Of a stretch of DNA of 64,000 nt, positions 14,292 through 51,249 are shown one piece after another. Below the pieces are notes generated by a model. It worked only from the letters and a program-made list of their open reading frames with translations. It was not told where the DNA came from and ran no database searches. Positions within the stretch are counted from its first letter, which is position 1. Each line of letters opens with the position of its first letter. The translations under genes and the position numbers were made by a program. This stretch comes from an uncultured bacterium (lineage in GTDB: Bacteria; Patescibacteriota; Minisyncoccia; Phycocordibacterales; UBA2100). The stretch lies in the NCBI GenBank assembly GCA_903854215.1, contig CAINVT010000009.1, forward strand, positions 191 to 64,190. Reading direction: 5' to 3'.

Positions 14292-14332
14292 AAGTCCGTG
14301 AATTACCCAATTGGGTTATTTACGGGCTTTCA
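14292..14332. repeat. palindromic repeat copy 1 (core TTACCCAATTGGG)
   Basis: AGTCCGTGAATTACCCAATTGGGTTATTTACGGGCTTTCAC forms a 15-bp-arm hairpin with one mismatch and one G-U pair. It is nearly identical to the copy at 14977 and related to the perfect palindrome at 46309. Confidence 0.8.
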
Positions 14333-14976: not shown

Positions 14977-15017
14977 AGTCCGTGAATTACCCAATTGGGA
15001 TTTTTACGGACTTTCAC
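14977..15017. repeat. palindromic repeat copy 2
   Basis: AGTCCGTGAATTACCCAATTGGGATTTTTACGGACTTTCAC. The first 24 nt are identical to copy 1. It lies between the PaaX-like gene and dnaK. Confidence 0.8.
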
Positions 15018-28484: not shown

Positions 28485-29216
28485 ATGGACACGCGATTCA
28501 ATCTTGCGACCCAAACCTTTGAAGGTCCGCTTGAGACACTGCTCAATCTCATCGAGCTTCGTAAGATGTCGATCTCAGAAATATCACTTTCGGAAGTTTG
28601 TGATGCATATCTCGCGTATGTCGAACAGTTACCGGAACTTCCGCTCGGCGAGACCGCGCAGTTCATTCTTGTCGCTTCGACCTTGCTCTTGATCAAATCC
28701 CGCACATTGTTGCCGACACTTGAGTTGAGCACCGAAGAACGCGAATCGGTCGAGGAACTCGAACGACGTCTCGCGCGTTATGCGGTGATTCGCAAAGCGG
28801 CGAAAGTCATGCGCAGCGAGTGGGGGAAAGCACCGCTCATTTTGGCAAAACGTGCGCCGCTGCGCGAGGCGGTCTTTTCTCCCGCGGAGACGAGCACCAT
28901 ACGCATCCGAGACGCGGCGATCAATCTCATCAAAAGTATTCCCAAGCCGGAACAATTGGCTCAAGCCGCCGTCGCACCTGTATTGGCCCTTGAGGACGTT
29001 ATTAAAAGTTTGCATGCACGCCTTACGACGGCGATTCGTACCCGCTGGAGCGATCTCACCAAAAATACGTCCGACAAACACGTGCTTATTGTCCATTTTC
29101 TTGCGGTGTTGGAACTCGTTCGCAATGGCAGTGCGAGCGTCTCGCAAGATAAACTCTTTAGCGACATCACCATAGAGATCGAAAACCTAACCGGCGCGCC
29201 GCGGTACGGCATTTGA
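28485..29216 (+). CDS. scpA: segregation and condensation protein A
   Basis: 243 aa; the N-terminus FEGPLETLLNLIELRKMSISEISLSEVCDAYLAYV is the ScpA signature. Confidence 0.85.
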   Translation: MDTRFNLATQTFEGPLETLLNLIELRKMSISEISLSEVCDAYLAYVEQLPELPLGETAQFILVASTLLLIKSRTLLPTLELSTEERESVEELERRLARYAVIRKAAKVMRSEWGKAPLILAKRAPLREAVFSPAETSTIRIRDAAINLIKSIPKPEQLAQAAVAPVLALEDVIKSLHARLTTAIRTRWSDLTKNTSDKHVLIVHFLAVLELVRNGSASVSQDKLFSDITIEIENLTGAPRYGI

Positions 29217-29285
29217 GTATGCATATGGTTCCCATGCACAGTCATGTGTGTTTGCGAATTTCAAAACGTGACCTATAATTTCCAC

Positions 29286-29546
29286 ATGGCAAAGAAGACG
29301 ACACTCAACGAACTCGGCTCGATGCTGGAGCATGTGGTCAAACACATGGCGACAAAGGACGATATTGCGAATATGGCGACCAAGGATGATATCGCTGCTA
29401 TTCGCAACGAGATGGCGACCGGCTTCCTAACGCTTCAGACCCAAGTCAATTCGATCGAAACCGATATCCACGGCATGAAGCATGCAAAACTGGAGTTTCG
29501 CGTACTTGATCTGGAAGAAAAAGTCTTCGGCAAAGTCCGCGCTTGA
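29286..29546 (+). CDS. small coiled-coil protein with a repeated MATKDDIA motif (DUF1640-like); paralog of 50983..51249
   Basis: MAKKTTLNELGSMLEHVVKHMATKDDIANMATKDDIAAIRNEMATGF...; ATG at 29286 within the longer ORF 29244. Confidence 0.5.
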   Translation: MAKKTTLNELGSMLEHVVKHMATKDDIANMATKDDIAAIRNEMATGFLTLQTQVNSIETDIHGMKHAKLEFRVLDLEEKVFGKVRA

Positions 29547-29560
29547 CTTGTTCGGTCGTT

Positions 29561-29615
29561 ATGGCCGTGCATGGTGCCCATGATGGGCACCATGCACGGC
29601 CATTGGGTATTTTCG
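29561..29615 (+). terminator. very strong perfect hairpin (21-bp arms) plus T-tract between scpA and scpB
   Basis: ATGGCCGTGCATGGTGCCCAT-g-ATGGGCACCATGCACGGCCAT followed by TGGGTATTTTCG. Confidence 0.6.
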
Positions 29616-29647
29616 AGCGCAAGGGTTAGAATTAAAACAAACATTTT

Positions 29648-30304
29648 ATGGAGTCTGCAGATTCTAAAGAACTTGCGAACAAAATAGAAGCCTTTATCTT
29701 TGTCGAAGGTGGCTCACTTTCGATCAAACGACTCATTCAACTCACGAACACTGACGATGTGCAGGTGCGCGCCGCACTTACCGAGCTTGCGCGCAGGCGC
29801 GATGGTAGCGGACTTATGCTCGTGCAAACGGATACCGATGCGACACTTGCAGCAGCTCCAAAAGAAAGCGAGATCTTGCGATCAAATTACGAAAAAGAAT
29901 TGGGGCGAGAGGTCGGTGATGCGGGCCTTGAAGTACTCGCGATCATCCTCTACCGCGGTCCATCGACCCGCGCGCAGATCGATTATATTCGCGGTGTCAA
30001 TACAAGTTCGACGATTCGCACGCTGCTCGCACGCGGACTCATCACCCGCGCGGGTAATCCCTTGGATGGCCGTGAATACGTCTATCGTCCGACCGTTGAA
30101 TTGCTCGCGCATATCGGCGCAGCTCATGTGCAGGATCTCCCGGAATATGATACGATTTCAAGTGAATTAAAAGCATTCGAGGAGATTGAGCAGGAAAGCG
30201 GACCTTTTAACCAAAATCATGAGCGAAATGCAACCGACACAACCGGAGGAGGAACTTTTGTTGACACCAGCACCACAAGAGATCCTTCTGCCACAGCAGA
30301 CTGA
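29648..30304 (+). CDS. scpB: segregation and condensation protein B
   Basis: 218 aa; tandem wHTH ScpB pattern (IEAFIFVEGGSLSIKRLIQL...LEVLAIILYRGPSTRAQIDYIRGVNTSSTIRTLLARGLI). Confidence 0.85.
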   Translation: MESADSKELANKIEAFIFVEGGSLSIKRLIQLTNTDDVQVRAALTELARRRDGSGLMLVQTDTDATLAAAPKESEILRSNYEKELGREVGDAGLEVLAIILYRGPSTRAQIDYIRGVNTSSTIRTLLARGLITRAGNPLDGREYVYRPTVELLAHIGAAHVQDLPEYDTISSELKAFEEIEQESGPFNQNHERNATDTTGGGTFVDTSTTRDPSATAD

Positions 30305-46308: not shown

Positions 46309-46342
46309 GTCCGCAATTTACCCAATTGGGTAAATTGCGGAC
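46309..46342. repeat. palindromic repeat copy 3 (perfect 34-bp palindrome) between convergent cysS and leuS
   Basis: GTCCGCAATTTACCCAATTGGGTAAATTGCGGAC shares the TTACCCAATTGGGTAA core and AGTCCG...CGGAC ends with the copies at 14292 and 14977. Confidence 0.8.
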
Positions 46343-46394: not shown

Positions 46395-49300
46395 TCAATC
46401 TTCGACAACAACGAAGTTGACTAGCCGATTCGGTACGATGATGACGCGCGAGACAGTCTTACCATCCAGCTTTTCTACTACCGCTTCGTGGGCTAAGTTT
46501 TCAAGCGTCGATTTGTCCGAATCAATGGCCGCATCGATTTCCCCACGGGTCTTGCCGTTGATCTGTATCGCAATGTGCGCGGTGGTGCCTTTTGATTTCG
46601 TCTCGTCGGCGACCGGCCATGGCTCGAGTCGCAATTCGGTCGGGTGACCGCTTTTTTCCCAGAGCTCGTGAGTGAGATGCGGTGCGAATGGCGCGAGCAA
46701 TTTGAGAAACGTCTCGTACGCTTCAGATGAAACACTGTCGAGCTTCTCATATTCATTCAAAAGGATCATCAGTGCCGAGACGGCCGTATTCATTTTGAGC
46801 TTCTCAATATCATCGCTGACCTTCTTGATCGTCTGATGCAAAAGTGTTTCGAGCGGAGGTTCAAGCTTCGTCACGTTATCGGCCTTGATATCGGCAACGC
46901 GTTCAAGGAATCGCCGCATACCAACGACGCCGTTGTTGTTCCACGCGACCGGCTGATCGAATGGCCCGATGAACATTTCGTACAGGCGCAACGAGTCAGC
47001 GCCGACGGATTCAACGAGCGCATCTGGGCTCACCGAGTTCCCCTTCGACTTTGACATCTTCGAGCCGTCTTCGGCGAGAATAAGCCCATGGCTCGTGCGC
47101 TTCATATACGGCTCTGGCGAAGGCACTAATCCCTGGTCGAATAGGAATTTATGCCAAAAGCGCGAATAGAGAAGGTGCAGCACCGTGTGTTCCATGCCTC
47201 CGTTGTACCAATTCACCGGTGTCCAATACTTCATCAGGTCCGGCGAAGCGAATTCATGCGTATTCTGCGGATCTATATAGCGCAAGTAGTACCAGCTCGA
47301 GCCCGCCCAGTTGGGCATCACGTCCGTTTCTCGCTTTGCATCACCGCCGCACTTCGGGCACTTTGTGTTGACCCACTTAGTGATATTTGCGAGCGGAGAT
47401 TCTCCCGTTTCGGTCGGTTCATATTTTTCCACTTCCGGTAACGTGACCGGCAATTGATCTTCCGGCACCGGCTGCCATCCGCATCTCTCACAATGGATCA
47501 TGGGTATCGGCTCGCCCCAGTATCGCTGGCGGCTGAATACCCAATCTCGAAGTTTGAATGTCGTTACCATCTTCCCGCCGACGAATTCAGTGATCATTTT
47601 CTTCGCCTCATCGCTCGGAAGCCCGCTCAGTGTACCGGAGTTGACCAGAAATCCGTCATCGACAAAAAATTTGTCATTGAGATATTCCCAATCAATTTTA
47701 TCCTTGTCTTTTCCTCTATTTTTAAGCTGTTGCTCCTTGAACTTTTTAACAAATCGCTGTGACAACACCAGGGCTGTGTGGTGATTCAGTGATTTCTCTT
47801 GTTCCTCGAAATCATCATCCTGGCAATCAAATTCTCGAATATATGGTCCTATATCAATTTCGATTCCCTCGTCGTTTTTTAATATTGAATTCGTCAAATT
47901 TTCTGATATTTTCTTTTCTGCCACCTTGTGGAATCCAAGTTCGCCGAATAACGTAAGCAATTTCTGGTATGAATTGTCATCTTTTGTTATCAGATCAATA
48001 TCCTCAAATTCGCGATAAATGATTTTTGCATAAAAAGCGCAGGCCAAACCACCCAAAACCCAGAATTTGATATCTTTCTTTTTTGCGGCCTCATATATGG
48101 TGTCCAATGCAGTCAAAACTTTTTCAGTTTTTTCAAAGGCGGACATATCCGGCGTAACGGATTGAATAATAGGTAACCCGTACTTCTTAGCAAATGCACC
48201 ATCGCGCTCATCATGGGCTGGCACGGCCATGATAGCGCCGGTGCCGTAACTGCCGAGCACATAATCAGCAATGAAAATCGGAATCTCTTTTTTATTCGCC
48301 GGGTTTATAGCCTTGATCCCCTTCAGTTCGACGCCGGTCTTTTCTTTACCTTCAGCTGTGCGATCGATATCCGATTTGTTCCGTGCCGCCGTTTGATACG
48401 CGATCACCTCATCTTTGTTATCGAATTCATTCGCAAGCATCGAGACCAACGGATGTTCCGGTGCAAGTACCATATACGTCGCGCCGAATAATGTATCCGG
48501 GCGAGTCGTGAATACGGTCAAGCTCTGCATAAAGAGTTTCTTGAGACCATCGGTAATGGGCCCGAGTTCAAGCGATTCTTCAGCATCCGTCTGTTCGAGC
48601 ACATACTTTCCAGTCGCCTTCGAGATATATAATCCGCGAAGCGGAAGGTACGGGTCTACAGCGCCGTGCGATTCCGAAGTCAGAATAACGGGTCGTGTCG
48701 TTTCTATATGTGTTGCAACTTTCCCGGGCGTTATGAAGCATAAATTATTTCTCCATTCCGCATCAACTTTTCCACCACGCTTTCGGGCGATGTCCGCATA
48801 ATATGACTGCATACGACCACCTATCTCTTCGATGGAAAGTGATTTCTCGTCATCTCCGGCGAGCGCATTCCGTTTTACAGCGATCGGATCGATCATTTCC
48901 CCGTCGATAAAGAATCCGCTGTCATCGGCGAATACCGGCAGATCGGTGAGCGCTGCGAGAGCCCGAGCTTTTTTTTCGGAATTTTCTTCGAGAGTTCGGG
49001 CGTCTTCCGAGACGTCAAACCGTTCGATGCCAATATCCTTTGGCATCAACAATTCGATATCGATATGCCCTTCTTCGAAAAGTTTCCGCATACGCTTGAG
49101 CTTTCCCAGATTATTCGTGGCGAAAACGATCCTCATGCGCGGACGTTGCCACGAAAGCGAAAATGATATCTCCGCTCCATCCGACGGTCCGATCCAATTG
49201 CGCTGTTCCGTCTTCGCTCGCTCGATGTAATCAACGGTATCGAGGTCGTCGTAAAGTCGCTGCGCATATTTCGTAATTGCCATCATCCACTGTTCCTTTT

Positions 49301-49883
49301 CACGCTTCTCAACCGGCGTACCGCATCGCTCGCAGCAGCCGTCGACGACCTCTTCGTTGGCAAGTCCGATCTTGTCCTTCGGGCACCAATTGATCAGCGT
49401 CTTTGCTTTATACGTCAGACCTTTTTTAAAGAATTGTAAAAAAAGCCACTGCGTCCATTTGTAATATGAAGAATCGGTCGTGTTGATCTCGCGAGACCAA
49501 TCGAACGAGAGCCCGAGCGATTTGATCTGCCGGCGGAAGTTGTCGGTGTTCTCTTTGGTAACGATACGCGGATCCCGACCTGTCTTCAGTGCATAATTTT
49601 CCGTCGGTAAACCGAATGCATCCCAGCCGATCGGATATAAGACGTTATACCCTTGTGCACGGCGTTTGCGCGCCAGGACGTCGAGCGCGGTCCAGCTCCG
49701 CACATGCCCTACATGAAGCCCCTCACCGGAAGGATATGGAAACTCGATCATCAGATAATCCTTCGGCTTCTCTGAAACATCATCGGCGCGATACGCCGAT
49801 TCCTTCTCCCATCGAGACTGCCACTTCTTCTCTATCTTCTTGTGATCGTAATTCTTCATAATAAGTAATGTACGTCCTTCCAA
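46395..49883 (-). CDS. leuS: leucine-tRNA ligase (1162 aa) with two large insertions in the CP1 editing domain: a Ham1/ITPase-like domain and an ANT(2'')-like nucleotidyltransferase domain
   Basis: Class I HVGH and KMSKS motifs and an intact editing core (TVFTTRPDTLFGATY; GTGAIMAVPAHDERD). Insertion 1 (residues about 245-453, nt about 48525..49151) contains RIVFATNNLGKLKRMRKL ... LEENSEKKARALAALTDLPVFADDSGFFIDG, the Ham1/RdgB motif set. Insertion 2 (residues about 578-745, nt about 47649..48152) contains KFWVLGGLACAFYAKIIYREFEDIDLI...LFGELGF, the aminoglycoside 2''-nucleotidyltransferase-like pattern. Confidence 0.88.
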   Translation of the reverse strand: MEGRTLLIMKNYDHKKIEKKWQSRWEKESAYRADDVSEKPKDYLMIEFPYPSGEGLHVGHVRSWTALDVLARKRRAQGYNVLYPIGWDAFGLPTENYALKTGRDPRIVTKENTDNFRRQIKSLGLSFDWSREINTTDSSYYKWTQWLFLQFFKKGLTYKAKTLINWCPKDKIGLANEEVVDGCCERCGTPVEKREKEQWMMAITKYAQRLYDDLDTVDYIERAKTEQRNWIGPSDGAEISFSLSWQRPRMRIVFATNNLGKLKRMRKLFEEGHIDIELLMPKDIGIERFDVSEDARTLEENSEKKARALAALTDLPVFADDSGFFIDGEMIDPIAVKRNALAGDDEKSLSIEEIGGRMQSYYADIARKRGGKVDAEWRNNLCFITPGKVATHIETTRPVILTSESHGAVDPYLPLRGLYISKATGKYVLEQTDAEESLELGPITDGLKKLFMQSLTVFTTRPDTLFGATYMVLAPEHPLVSMLANEFDNKDEVIAYQTAARNKSDIDRTAEGKEKTGVELKGIKAINPANKKEIPIFIADYVLGSYGTGAIMAVPAHDERDGAFAKKYGLPIIQSVTPDMSAFEKTEKVLTALDTIYEAAKKKDIKFWVLGGLACAFYAKIIYREFEDIDLITKDDNSYQKLLTLFGELGFHKVAEKKISENLTNSILKNDEGIEIDIGPYIREFDCQDDDFEEQEKSLNHHTALVLSQRFVKKFKEQQLKNRGKDKDKIDWEYLNDKFFVDDGFLVNSGTLSGLPSDEAKKMITEFVGGKMVTTFKLRDWVFSRQRYWGEPIPMIHCERCGWQPVPEDQLPVTLPEVEKYEPTETGESPLANITKWVNTKCPKCGGDAKRETDVMPNWAGSSWYYLRYIDPQNTHEFASPDLMKYWTPVNWYNGGMEHTVLHLLYSRFWHKFLFDQGLVPSPEPYMKRTSHGLILAEDGSKMSKSKGNSVSPDALVESVGADSLRLYEMFIGPFDQPVAWNNNGVVGMRRFLERVADIKADNVTKLEPPLETLLHQTIKKVSDDIEKLKMNTAVSALMILLNEYEKLDSVSSEAYETFLKLLAPFAPHLTHELWEKSGHPTELRLEPWPVADETKSKGTTAHIAIQINGKTRGEIDAAIDSDKSTLENLAHEAVVEKLDGKTVSRVIIVPNRLVNFVVVED

Positions 49884-50006: not shown

Positions 50007-50978
50007 TTATTTTGTCGGAGCCGGATTTACGATGTTCGGTCCATATCGCTTCGGGTCGATCGTTCGTACGAAACAAGCTTGACCGACGTCGTGGTACCAA
50101 GAATCCGGCGCAGCATACTGACCAGCTACACCTGTCGATACGGGAACAGCAAGTGCTTCCGAAAACGTCGGAGAATTCGGTTGTGTCACTGCATTGAATG
50201 TCGCACAGAGCTTGAATGAAAGCGCCGATGTCGTCGCGTATTCATACGGGTTCCCGGTCTGCACGTCGACGGAGACGGCCGAATAGCTGCTGAGTGCATC
50301 AGCAAGGTCTGCAAGATGCGCCGGAAGCTTTCCTTCTACCTGCCAGTAGTACACGACTTGTGTCTGAATACTTTGAAGGTCGTTCACCTTCTCGTCGTCG
50401 AATCGATACGACCGCACTTGCCCCGGTGTACCGATAATAAGGAATCCTGACAGGATCGTTACTACGACGAGAATACCGATACCGACTCCGACTGACATGG
50501 CATAGCGTGGGTTGATATCCCAGTAACCCCAGAGGTCTGCAAGGAAATGCATCAAGCCGATACTCATGACAAAGAACACGATCAACACCTTCAGGATGAA
50601 ATGTGTCGTCAATTCTCCGCTAAGAAACGTATTGATGAGTGTGATGAGATCGATGACGACGGTGACGCCGGCAATGAAGATCGTGAGGACTAATGCCCAG
50701 CGACGGATCCAGAGGCTCTTCTTTACCGGCTCGCGCACGACGTCACGTCGGATGAAATGTATTAAGATGAAATACACCGGTACGAGGACGACCAGCGACG
50801 CCATCGCAAACCGGATACTGCTCGAGTATGGATCGATGTATGAATTCAGCGCGTCCGGAAACGCGATATCGATGTAATTGAAAAAAAGCGTGATAAGCGA
50901 TACTGCGCTCACATAGAGTGCTGCCATCGCTGCGACCCACAAGAAGAAATCTTTCGGACCTGTCTTTATTTTTTCCAT
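50007..50978 (-). CDS. polytopic membrane protein with a C-terminal extracytoplasmic domain (DUF5671-like), hypothetical
   Basis: 323 aa, about 5 TM helices in the N-terminal 200 aa. Confidence 0.45.
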   Translation of the reverse strand: MEKIKTGPKDFFLWVAAMAALYVSAVSLITLFFNYIDIAFPDALNSYIDPYSSSIRFAMASLVVLVPVYFILIHFIRRDVVREPVKKSLWIRRWALVLTIFIAGVTVVIDLITLINTFLSGELTTHFILKVLIVFFVMSIGLMHFLADLWGYWDINPRYAMSVGVGIGILVVVTILSGFLIIGTPGQVRSYRFDDEKVNDLQSIQTQVVYYWQVEGKLPAHLADLADALSSYSAVSVDVQTGNPYEYATTSALSFKLCATFNAVTQPNSPTFSEALAVPVSTGVAGQYAAPDSWYHDVGQACFVRTIDPKRYGPNIVNPAPTK

Positions 50979-50982
50979 ATTA

Positions 50983-51249
50983 CTATTTTACAAACTCACG
51001 CTTTTCAACCCTCGTCAGTCTTTTTTCAAAATCAAGAATCGTCAGAGAATCTTTGTCAACCGCGCGGCCCAGTGCCCGTACCTCGAGTCGTACCTCACTT
51101 ATTCGTTCTTCAAGCTTATTCCGTGTGAAATCGAGATCCTCCTTCGTAGCCATATCCGATAATCGTTCTTCAATATTCGTGATTCGAGTATCGATTGAGA
51201 TCAAAAGCTTTAAGATCCTATCTTCGTCTGAGGATGGTTTCTTACTCAT
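50983..51249 (-). CDS. small coiled-coil protein with an MATKEDL motif (DUF1640-like); paralog of 29286..29546
   Basis: MSKK...SDMATKEDLDFTRNKLEERISEVRLEVRALG...ILDFEKRLTRVEK. Confidence 0.5.
   Translation of the reverse strand: MSKKPSSDEDRILKLLISIDTRITNIEERLSDMATKEDLDFTRNKLEERISEVRLEVRALGRAVDKDSLTILDFEKRLTRVEKREFVK

Follow-up and report, generated by a model that had tools for sequence, protein, structure and literature searches.

Beta-layers are known from crystal structures of the Thermosinus carboxydivorans protein Tcar0761, in which the nonad repeat MATKDDIAN forms them as trimers (Hartmann et al., eLife 2016, PMC4786415). The MAT residues make up a three-residue beta-layer in a parallel trimer, with KDDIAN at positions e-f-g-a-b-c, and the motif, whose consensus is [aliphatic]-A-T-K-[polar]-[DE], recurs across unrelated families, among them the DUF1640 membrane proteins, where it stands at the start of the stalk (PMC4786415). 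Here we describe a small gene carrying the same nonad, open reading frame (ORF) A, which lies between scpA and scpB in a 64-kb stretch of bacterial DNA ("the window", meaning the whole stretch, on whose numbering coordinates are given unless a contig is named). The two flanking genes encode the kleisin and kite subunits of the bacterial SMC condensin. In the canonical operon they overlap or are spaced by a few nucleotides and are coupled, whereas in the window the pair is split by 431 nt that carry their own promoter and hairpin.

ORF A is a real gene, and on balance we favor the reading that the whole package is an acquired, autonomous, leaderless unit for a trimeric alpha/beta coiled-coil accessory protein that was inserted at the scpA-scpB junction. 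It is a fairly ordinary acquired accessory gene, and none of the findings on it overturns current understanding. The motif and its fold class were already known, the hairpin belongs to a generic type, and the insertion occurred in a particular lineage. What is new is the recognition of the homologs of ORF A (family A) as a large family of compact beta-layer proteins with a conserved leaderless promoter and without a model in Pfam, NCBIfam or PADLOC, as well as the association of this family with mobile elements.

The scpA-scpB junction

The junction in the window consists of the following features:

28485..29216 (+), scpA, segregation and condensation protein A (PF02616 SMC_ScpA, E 2.6e-21; stop codon TGA at 29214-29216)
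29217..29647 (+), lineage-specific insertion of 431 nt from the scpA stop to the scpB start (comparison with relatives)
29286..29546 (+), ORF A, 86-residue soluble protein, predicted trimeric alpha/beta coiled coil (homologs, PDB profile match, AlphaFold2 model)
29648..30304 (+), scpB, segregation and condensation protein B (PF04079 SMC_ScpB, E 4.8e-33)

A scan of metagenome contigs with ScpB retrieved 80 related loci, 69 of which contained both gene ends (related metagenome contigs and loci used for comparison are designated by L-numbers throughout). The order aspS-scpA-scpB-dacB was kept in all 80 as far as the contigs extend, and the window shares this neighborhood, with both genes intact and in the usual order. 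The distance between scpA and scpB was -32 to +36 nt in 64 of the 69 loci (median about 1 nt), compared to 431 nt in the window. The claim of a first-pass annotation of this DNA that ORF A interrupts an otherwise contiguous scpA-scpB pair is thus borne out, the gap being at most 36 nt in these 64 relatives. The window ScpA is 90% identical to that of L012 and L013 and 86% identical to that of L014 (93.5% over the C-terminal 62 residues in the closest relatives), and the junction of the closest relatives reads ...TGA-tatat-ATG..., a gap of 5 nt. The 431-nt unit of the window is therefore almost certainly a lineage-specific insertion at a tightly coupled scpA-scpB junction.

ORF A was absent from all 80 scpB loci retrieved from the metagenome collection. 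The sole other contig with an insert of this type was L092, in which a 79%-identical small gene occupies the same site behind the same TTGCGA-16-TATAAT promoter; overall, an ORF A-type gene was missing from 80 of 81 distinct related scpAB loci. DNA identity around the insert is mosaic. The 3' end of scpA (29028-29213) is 78.5% identical to the insert-free L012 versus 71.0% to L092, while the 5' end of scpB (29648-29932) is 72.0% identical to the insert-bearing L092 versus 64.9% to L012, and ORF A shares 84.6% DNA identity with the small gene of L092. This mosaic suggests recombination or loss. No anomaly in GC content or skew was found across the insert.

Since two lineages, those of the window and of L092, have the gene within the scpAB pair, ORF A could be taken for a functional subunit accessory to SMC-ScpAB, or for a regulator of it, placed between the two genes for co-expression. 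SMC complexes are coiled-coil machines, and in L092, which lacks a terminator, co-transcription of the small gene with scpB is likely. We nevertheless consider this explanation very unlikely, because the gene is absent in the 80 scpB loci, including relatives with 90% identical ScpA, at least 12 other family A loci have neither scpA nor scpB nearby, and in the window ORF A has its own promoter, with a hairpin that would insulate it from scpB. Nothing ties the ORF A protein to condensin function. The gene would rather have landed between scpA and scpB by chance, at one of the few intergenic positions where an insertion is tolerated, and a trimeric rod co-opted to modulate SMC-ScpAB in this lineage would be a weaker variant of the mobile-cassette reading that is treated below with the flanking motifs. 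The insertion implies that the normally coupled scpA-scpB junction in streamlined genomes of the Candidate Phyla Radiation (CPR) tolerates an autonomous gene unit and, elsewhere, palindromic elements.

Other inserts were observed at this junction as well, namely a 137-nt inverted repeat in L040 (273-411), a 110-nt AT-rich palindrome in L079 (3881-3992), and in L091 (819-1474) a segment of 654 nt that comprises an ORF and a terminator hairpin. On the far side of scpB in the window, the longest ORF of the D-Ala-D-Ala carboxypeptidase gene (TTG at 30186) overlaps the scpB 3' end by 119 nt (30186-30304), and its true start is probably located downstream.

ORF A and its homologs

ORF A is present at 29286-29546 on the plus strand, where the first-pass annotation had placed it, and encodes the 86-residue peptide quoted there. 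A longer ORF starting from the ATG at 29244 is not conserved, and the homologs begin with M-x-K-K. In a collection of 5.8 billion proteins, 727 homologs were found at a cut-off of E<=0.01; the family comprises at least 777 representative clusters at 50% identity (184 with E<=1e-10), and the matches listed span 45-204 residues. Its members are small, with a typical length of about 80 residues. Alignments of family A exhibit conserved N-terminal and C-terminal blocks, with the consensus MxKKTTLNExGxMLxHVVKH-MATKDD-(variable number of further motif/heptad segments)-LQTQVNSIE..RGM.H.KLE.RVADLEEKVFGK.RA. Longer matches among the family A representatives were read-throughs, frameshifts or extra repeats, and none of them revealed an informative domain fusion.

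Neither ORF A nor the second small protein of the window discussed below (ORF B) scored above threshold in Pfam, NCBIfam or PADLOC, and a PADLOC scan of the ORF A protein returned nothing. Pfam and PHROGs library scans were run on 43 family A members. The PHROGs matches were all to families of unknown function, with phrog_25353 in 24 and phrog_9415 in 12 of the 43. Effector-associated domain 10 (EAD10, PF19954) matched residues 6-30 of ORF A with 14 bits (E 0.055), below the Pfam gathering score of 24.1 bits, and was likewise sub-threshold in 22 of the 43 members (best E 9.2e-4). No transmembrane segment was detected in ORF A, the maximum Kyte-Doolittle mean over 19 residues being 0.52.

Predicted beta-layers in ORF A

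Three occurrences of the MAT triplet were located in ORF A:

29346..29363 (+), beta-layer motif 1, M21-A-T-K-D-D26 (fits the consensus; helix break in the model at residues 21-23)
29373..29390 (+), beta-layer motif 2, M30-A-T-K-D-D35 (identical to the Tcar0761 nonad; helix break in the model at residues 29-32)
29412..29420 (+), degenerate third MAT, M43-A-T followed by G-F (read from the sequence)

The stretch reads HMATKDDIAN-MATKDDIAAIRNE-MATGF, with nine residues from M21 to M30 (the nonad MATKDDIAN) and 13 (6+7) from M30 to M43. Across the family A alignments A22 of motif 1 never varies, and M21, T23, K24 and D26 are fully or almost fully conserved (>=90%), while the number of motifs varies among homologs and the second nonad is missing in L092. 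Compared with the PDB, a family A profile (A2) matched 5apz (5apz_A, GCN4-Tcar0761-GCN4) with E 5.9e-7 and 32.7 bits, followed by 6h9l (E 2.3e-4) and 5apx (E 7.6e-3). The alignment with 5apz is dominated by the repeated motif, and the similarity of family A to Tcar0761 may largely be that of the motif itself.

The AlphaFold2 monomer model of ORF A (predicted local distance difference test, pLDDT, 76) consists of helices at residues 7-20, 24-28 and 33-85, and its only helix breaks fall exactly at M21-A-T and N29-M-A-T, with helices on either side of each. M43-A-T was modeled as helix, and its assignment as a beta-layer is uncertain. Because the motif of ORF A is identical to that of solved structures, we consider it likely that the protein forms a short, soluble, probably homotrimeric alpha/beta coiled-coil rod with beta-layers. 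According to this layout, an N-terminal helix (7-20) would lead into two beta-layers in nonad spacing (M21-A-T and M30-A-T) and a long C-terminal heptad helix (33-85), and the chains would assemble in parallel into the homotrimeric rod.

ORF A shares with Tcar0761 (PDB 5APZ) the identical nonad and its fit to the consensus, heptad coiled-coil segments that flank the beta-layers, and a stand-alone form without an enzymatic domain. In contrast, Tcar0761 carries 14 consecutive nonads in a long fiber, whereas the 86 residues of ORF A hold two canonical motifs and one degenerate motif, framed by conserved blocks of its own (TTLNELGxMLxHVVKH at the N-terminus and RVADLEEKVFG at the C-terminus). DUF3782, the Pfam family to which Tcar0761 was assigned, is a coiled coil of PD-(D/E)XK endonucleases. 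It gave no match to ORF A at E<=1, is not listed for the multi-repeat relatives, and is not among the 25 most often matched of the 85 Pfam families found with the 43 family A members. With family A, the alpha/beta coiled-coil class gains a compact form that stands alone, is probably soluble and should be easy to study structurally.

Comparison with DUF1640 proteins

DUF1640 proteins are integral to the membrane and have both a head domain and a C-terminal transmembrane helix (PMC4786415), as Adlakha et al. (2019) are also reported to have described. In this group, also referred to as CCDC90-like (MCUR1, CCDC90B and Kcr_0859; PF07798; PDB 6H9L), the beta-layer motif opens the coiled-coil stalk, as it does in ORF A. 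The first-pass annotation had found the pattern of the small proteins reminiscent of the DUF1640 type, and we examined whether ORF A could belong to the membrane-anchored coiled-coil proteins of the DUF1640 / MCUR1-CCDC90B family. The two have the beta-layer motif in common (PMC4786415), PF07798 is the nearest Pfam model for four of the 43 family A members (best E 4.4e-5) and likewise for P0204, P0144 and P0042, and the sole structural match of the ORF A model, which is not significant, is to 6h9l. However, ORF A itself has no PF07798 match at E<=1, the family A scores for this model (15-21 bits) all lie below its gathering score of 33.5 bits, the hydropathy maximum of 0.52 given above leaves no transmembrane helix, and the 20 residues ahead of the first beta-layer leave no room for a head domain. 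Membership in DUF1640 is thereby refuted and retains at most a negligible probability. What stands of the earlier comparison is the resemblance in the motif and the sub-threshold proximity of the Pfam model for a few members, and what falls is the assignment of ORF A to the family.

Promoter and start of ORF A

Directly upstream of ORF A lies the following element:

29252..29279 (+), sigma-70-like promoter TTGCGA-16-TATAAT (10 of 12 positions matched in the promoter scan; the -10 box ends 6 nt before the ORF A ATG)

The same arrangement was found at all 15 family A starts examined (13 of them distinct), where a TAnnnT hexamer ends 6-7 nt before the ATG and a Shine-Dalgarno sequence is missing; most of these starts also have a -35 box (TTGC[AG]N or TTGTGG) 16 nt upstream. 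Since the -10 box stands 6-7 nt ahead of the ATG at every family A start examined, the ORF A mRNA is probably leaderless. The unit would be self-contained, leading from a sigma-70-type promoter through a leaderless ORF to a hairpin.

The spacing is common in the window as a whole. Among 50 genes called heuristically, 10, ORF B included, have a TAnnnT whose end lies exactly 6 nt ahead of the ATG, compared to 0-4 and typically 1-2 genes at other offsets, and Shine-Dalgarno-like motifs precede just 5 of the 50. Gene starts with the 6-nt spacing include those at 198, 13067, 26192, 33558, 50983(-) and 59427(-). Leaderless transcripts appear to be in heavy use in this genome, a point that bears on gene calling.

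The hairpin downstream of ORF A

Two features were noted between the ORF A stop codon and scpB:

29561..29603 (+), perfect, terminator-like hairpin of 20 bp with a 3-nt loop and a weak T-tract (begins 14 nt past the ORF A stop)
29627..29632 (+), TAGAAT, weak -10-like hexamer, possible scpB promoter (15 nt before the scpB ATG; read from the sequence)

The hairpin arms (29561-29581 and 29583-29603, 21 nt each) are 100% complementary and form 20 pairs, 13 of them G-C, around the 3-nt loop. The minimum free energy of -52.3 kcal/mol corresponds to a z-score of -6.8, none of 200 shuffled sequences folded as well, and no other gene-end hairpin in the window is as strong. The earlier description of a hairpin plus T-tract was correct as to a very strong and perfect hairpin but overstated the tract, since the tail TGGGTATTTT has a run of just four T that starts 7 nt after the stem. 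This tail passes a permissive scan (5 T in 8), with 4 T as its longest run and 6 nt between stem and run; other gene-end hairpins of this genome likewise have poor T-tracts. An assembly artifact was rejected, as the independent assembly L099 differs by two SNPs (single-nucleotide polymorphisms), both internal and located in scpA, apart from mismatches in the contig's last ~18 bases, and contains the identical hairpin. A search of Rfam gave no family above threshold and just sub-threshold matches to generic miRNA hairpins. Judged by eye, the palindrome is also unlike the parS consensus TGTTTCACGTGAAACA, and parS was discarded as a candidate.

With intrinsic (Rho-independent) terminators the hairpin shares a GC-rich perfect stem-loop placed 14 nt after a stop codon. 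It departs from the usual form in its unusually long 20-bp stem, in a T-run of 4 nt that lies 6 nt off the stem, and in not being conserved in the sister locus L092, in which the stop codon of the small gene is just 22 nt from the scpB ATG. Other homologs have strong hairpins of their own with unrelated sequence (L093, 22 bp followed by TTTTT, and L007). Termination at the hairpin, as proposed in the first-pass annotation, is plausible at about even odds, and the element probably terminates the small transcript and/or stabilizes its 3' end. If termination at the hairpin is efficient, scpB needs read-through or the TAGAAT promoter, and its present expression would therefore come either from transcripts that pass the hairpin or from this weak downstream promoter, which the promoter scan did not report (its -35 sequence TTGGGT matches 3 of 6 positions).

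Because of the poor U-tract and the lack of a hairpin in L092, the hairpin may not belong to the unit and may have arisen separately at a later time. One form of this explanation is an independently acquired palindromic element, similar to miniature inverted-repeat transposable elements (MITEs) or repetitive extragenic palindromic (REP) sequences or serving as a recombination or protein-binding site, which landed next to the small gene or was made there by inverted duplication. Apart from the poor T-tract and L092, which has the same gene at the same site with 22 nt from stop to scpB ATG and no hairpin, the purely palindromic inserts at the same junction in L040 (137 nt) and L079 (110 nt) favor this view, as does the hairpin core ATGGTGCCCATG, which recurs close behind the scpA stop, there with one mismatch, and downstream of the L094 homolog. 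On the other hand, neither the 64-kb window nor 540 kb of related loci contained a second copy of the palindrome, the flank similarity alone is not significant, the alignment with the other palindrome family of the window is unconvincing, and both the position 14 nt after the stop and the form match those of other gene-end hairpins here and in homologs. We therefore regard an independently acquired palindrome as the less likely origin, though one that deserves some weight. With respect to an inverted duplication, the left arm and the L092 spacer match at about 11 of 20 positions.

The other palindrome family of the window (approximately AGTCCGTGAATTACCCAATTGGGTnATTTACGGAC) is located at 14292-14329, 14977-15012 and 46309-46342, at intergenic sites or gene ends, including one between convergent genes, and may be a family of terminators or a REP-like family. 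The hairpin at 29561 was tried as a further member and rejected on account of the unconvincing alignment with the copies at 14292, 14977 and 46309.

Family A at other loci and the origin of the unit

Family A genes were found at unrelated loci and in islands of alphaproteobacterial metagenome-assembled genomes (Methylovirgula, Roseiarcus and Xanthobacteraceae). In L005 (1294-6710) the small gene follows a tRNA-Ser gene and a P4-type integrase gene and precedes genes for an HTH_36 protein and a coupling-protein-like ATPase. An integrase gene adjoins the family A gene in L003 (5688-6521), and a DDE_3 transposase gene is located within 2.2 kb of it in L001 (7419-8108). In L100 (5260-7850) the family A gene stands between ftsEX and a diversity-generating retroelement (RVT_1 and bAvd), and in L008 and L011 it is part of variable islands. 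Because the family occurs at unrelated loci and, in Alphaproteobacteria, on islands with integrases or transposases, the ORF A unit was most likely acquired horizontally. Its protein would most likely act as an accessory or mobile-element cargo protein through protein-protein contacts or as a scaffold.

In this respect the unit resembles morons and the cargo of integrative elements, with which it shares a self-contained promoter-ORF-hairpin arrangement, a patchy spread and, in other genomes, integrase, transposase or retroelement neighbors. Unlike such cargo genes, it has no recognizable recombinase, repeats or element borders in the window, and no copy in the phage and plasmid collections.

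Several observations weigh against an acquired, autonomous unit for a trimeric coiled-coil protein. A tblastn search of plasmid and phage collections found no match, and the CPR and alphaproteobacterial copies are just 48-58% identical, so that any transfer must be old. The window ScpA is closer to that of insert-free relatives than to that of L092, which requires loss or recombination. The hairpin has no proper U-tract and no counterpart in L092, and leaderless initiation as well as termination are predicted from the sequence only. As for the protein, the monomer model is only moderately confident (pLDDT 76, predicted template modeling score 0.37), and a Foldseek comparison of the model with the PDB returned nothing significant, the sole match being 6h9l at E 3.3.

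A further feature of the insert is situated directly behind scpA:

29225..29241 (+), 17-mer ATGGTTCCCATGCACAG, possible cassette-border motif (directly after the scpA stop)

This 17-mer matches ATGGTGCCCATGCGCAG at 15 of 17 positions. The latter stands 30 nt downstream of a 69%-identical homolog in L094 (2971-2987) and L095 (1907-1923), which represent a locus unrelated to that of the window, and the 17-mer core ATGGTGCCCATG equals the hairpin left arm. The pattern ATGGNNCCCATG, which was defined post hoc, has four independent occurrences in 0.6 Mb, three of them adjoining family A genes. The ATGGTKCCCATGCRCAG-type 17-mer may be a cassette-border or binding motif. That the 17-35 nt after scpA and the hairpin are terminal repeats of an inserted element was considered and rejected. 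Their local alignment gave a score of 19, which 32 of 2000 shuffles and 70 of 3730 genomic windows also attained and which is not significant alone.

From these elements one could construct a tiny mobile cassette, in which the promoter, the leaderless ORF and the flanking ATGGTKCCCATGCRCAG-type motif would travel together between CPR (Paceibacterota) genomes and the integrative elements of soil Alphaproteobacteria, by recombination that is either site-specific or mediated by hairpins. We consider such a cassette improbable. If it existed, its recombination would have left the 20-bp palindrome and the 17-mer after scpA behind as scars, and the gene pool held in common would be a hint that these CPR cells physically associate with alphaproteobacterial hosts.

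ORF B and its relation to ORF A

A second small coiled-coil protein is encoded elsewhere in the window:

50983..51249 (-), ORF B, 88-residue coiled-coil protein with a single MATKED motif, separate family (23 homologs; synteny)
51136..51153 (-), beta-layer-type motif of ORF B, M33-A-T-K-E-D38 (T35 and K36 invariant and M33 nearly invariant in family B)
50007..50978 (-), DUF5671 membrane protein, 4 nt downstream of ORF B (PF18920, E 1.7e-20)

ORF B is present at 50983-51249 on the minus strand with the 88-residue peptide quoted in the first-pass annotation, and both ORFs indeed encode small coiled-coil proteins that start with M[AS]KK and carry the motif MATK[DE]D. A C-terminal likeness of the type LD[LF]E[EK] had been proposed as well; the pair LDLEE/LDFEK is aligned by BLASTP, but the likeness was not recovered by profile comparison. 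The two ORFs had been described as paralogs, a claim that the comparisons did not establish, with BLASTP giving 23% identity over 56 residues (E 3e-4) and hhalign, comparing family A with the homologs of ORF B (family B), a probability of 27% over 13 columns that cover the surroundings of the motif only.

True paralogy, with the two proteins as remote homologs from one ancestral beta-layer coiled-coil gene, would account for the BLASTP E-value, which comes from this single pair, and for the shared M-[AS]-K-K start, the length of about 87 residues and the -10 box 6 nt before the ATG. The family A profile scored ORF B with 15.7 bits, more than all of about 2000 composition-matched shuffles, and 6.4 bits were left when MATKED was masked, a score reached by just 18 of 1998 shuffles. 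However, shuffling destroys the heptad periodicity, and the residual 6.4 bits could reflect this coiled-coil regularity alone. The hhalign result is limited to the 13 columns, database searches with each protein gave disjoint lists of matches, the conserved blocks and the genomic behavior differ, and beta-layer motifs also turn up in families that are unrelated to one another (PMC4786415). Common descent of the two genes is thus unlikely. ORF B belongs to a different family that shares essentially only the beta-layer motif with ORF A.

The two families also differ in distribution, family A being patchy and associated with mobile elements, while family B is small, syntenic and restricted in lineage. 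The 23 homologs in family B have Kaiserbacteria, Paceibacterota and Patescibacteria as named sources. Its genes follow the order ychF ... ORF B - DUF5671 membrane protein - leuS, and the same adjacency was found in L096-L098. ORF B is always directly upstream of the DUF5671 gene, at a distance of 4-12 nt or overlapping it, which suggests a conserved two-gene module in Kaiserbacteria and Paceibacterota; ORF B is probably a partner of the adjacent membrane protein.

Two further genes in this region were noted. The leucyl-tRNA synthetase ORF of the window (46395-49883, minus strand) is unusually long with 1162 residues, and the L096 synthetase has an extra NUDIX match in Pfam, suggesting an inserted domain. 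Immediately upstream of ychF, an 897-residue protein with the helicase domain of the Type III restriction enzyme res subunit (ResIII) is encoded at 52403-55096 on the minus strand.

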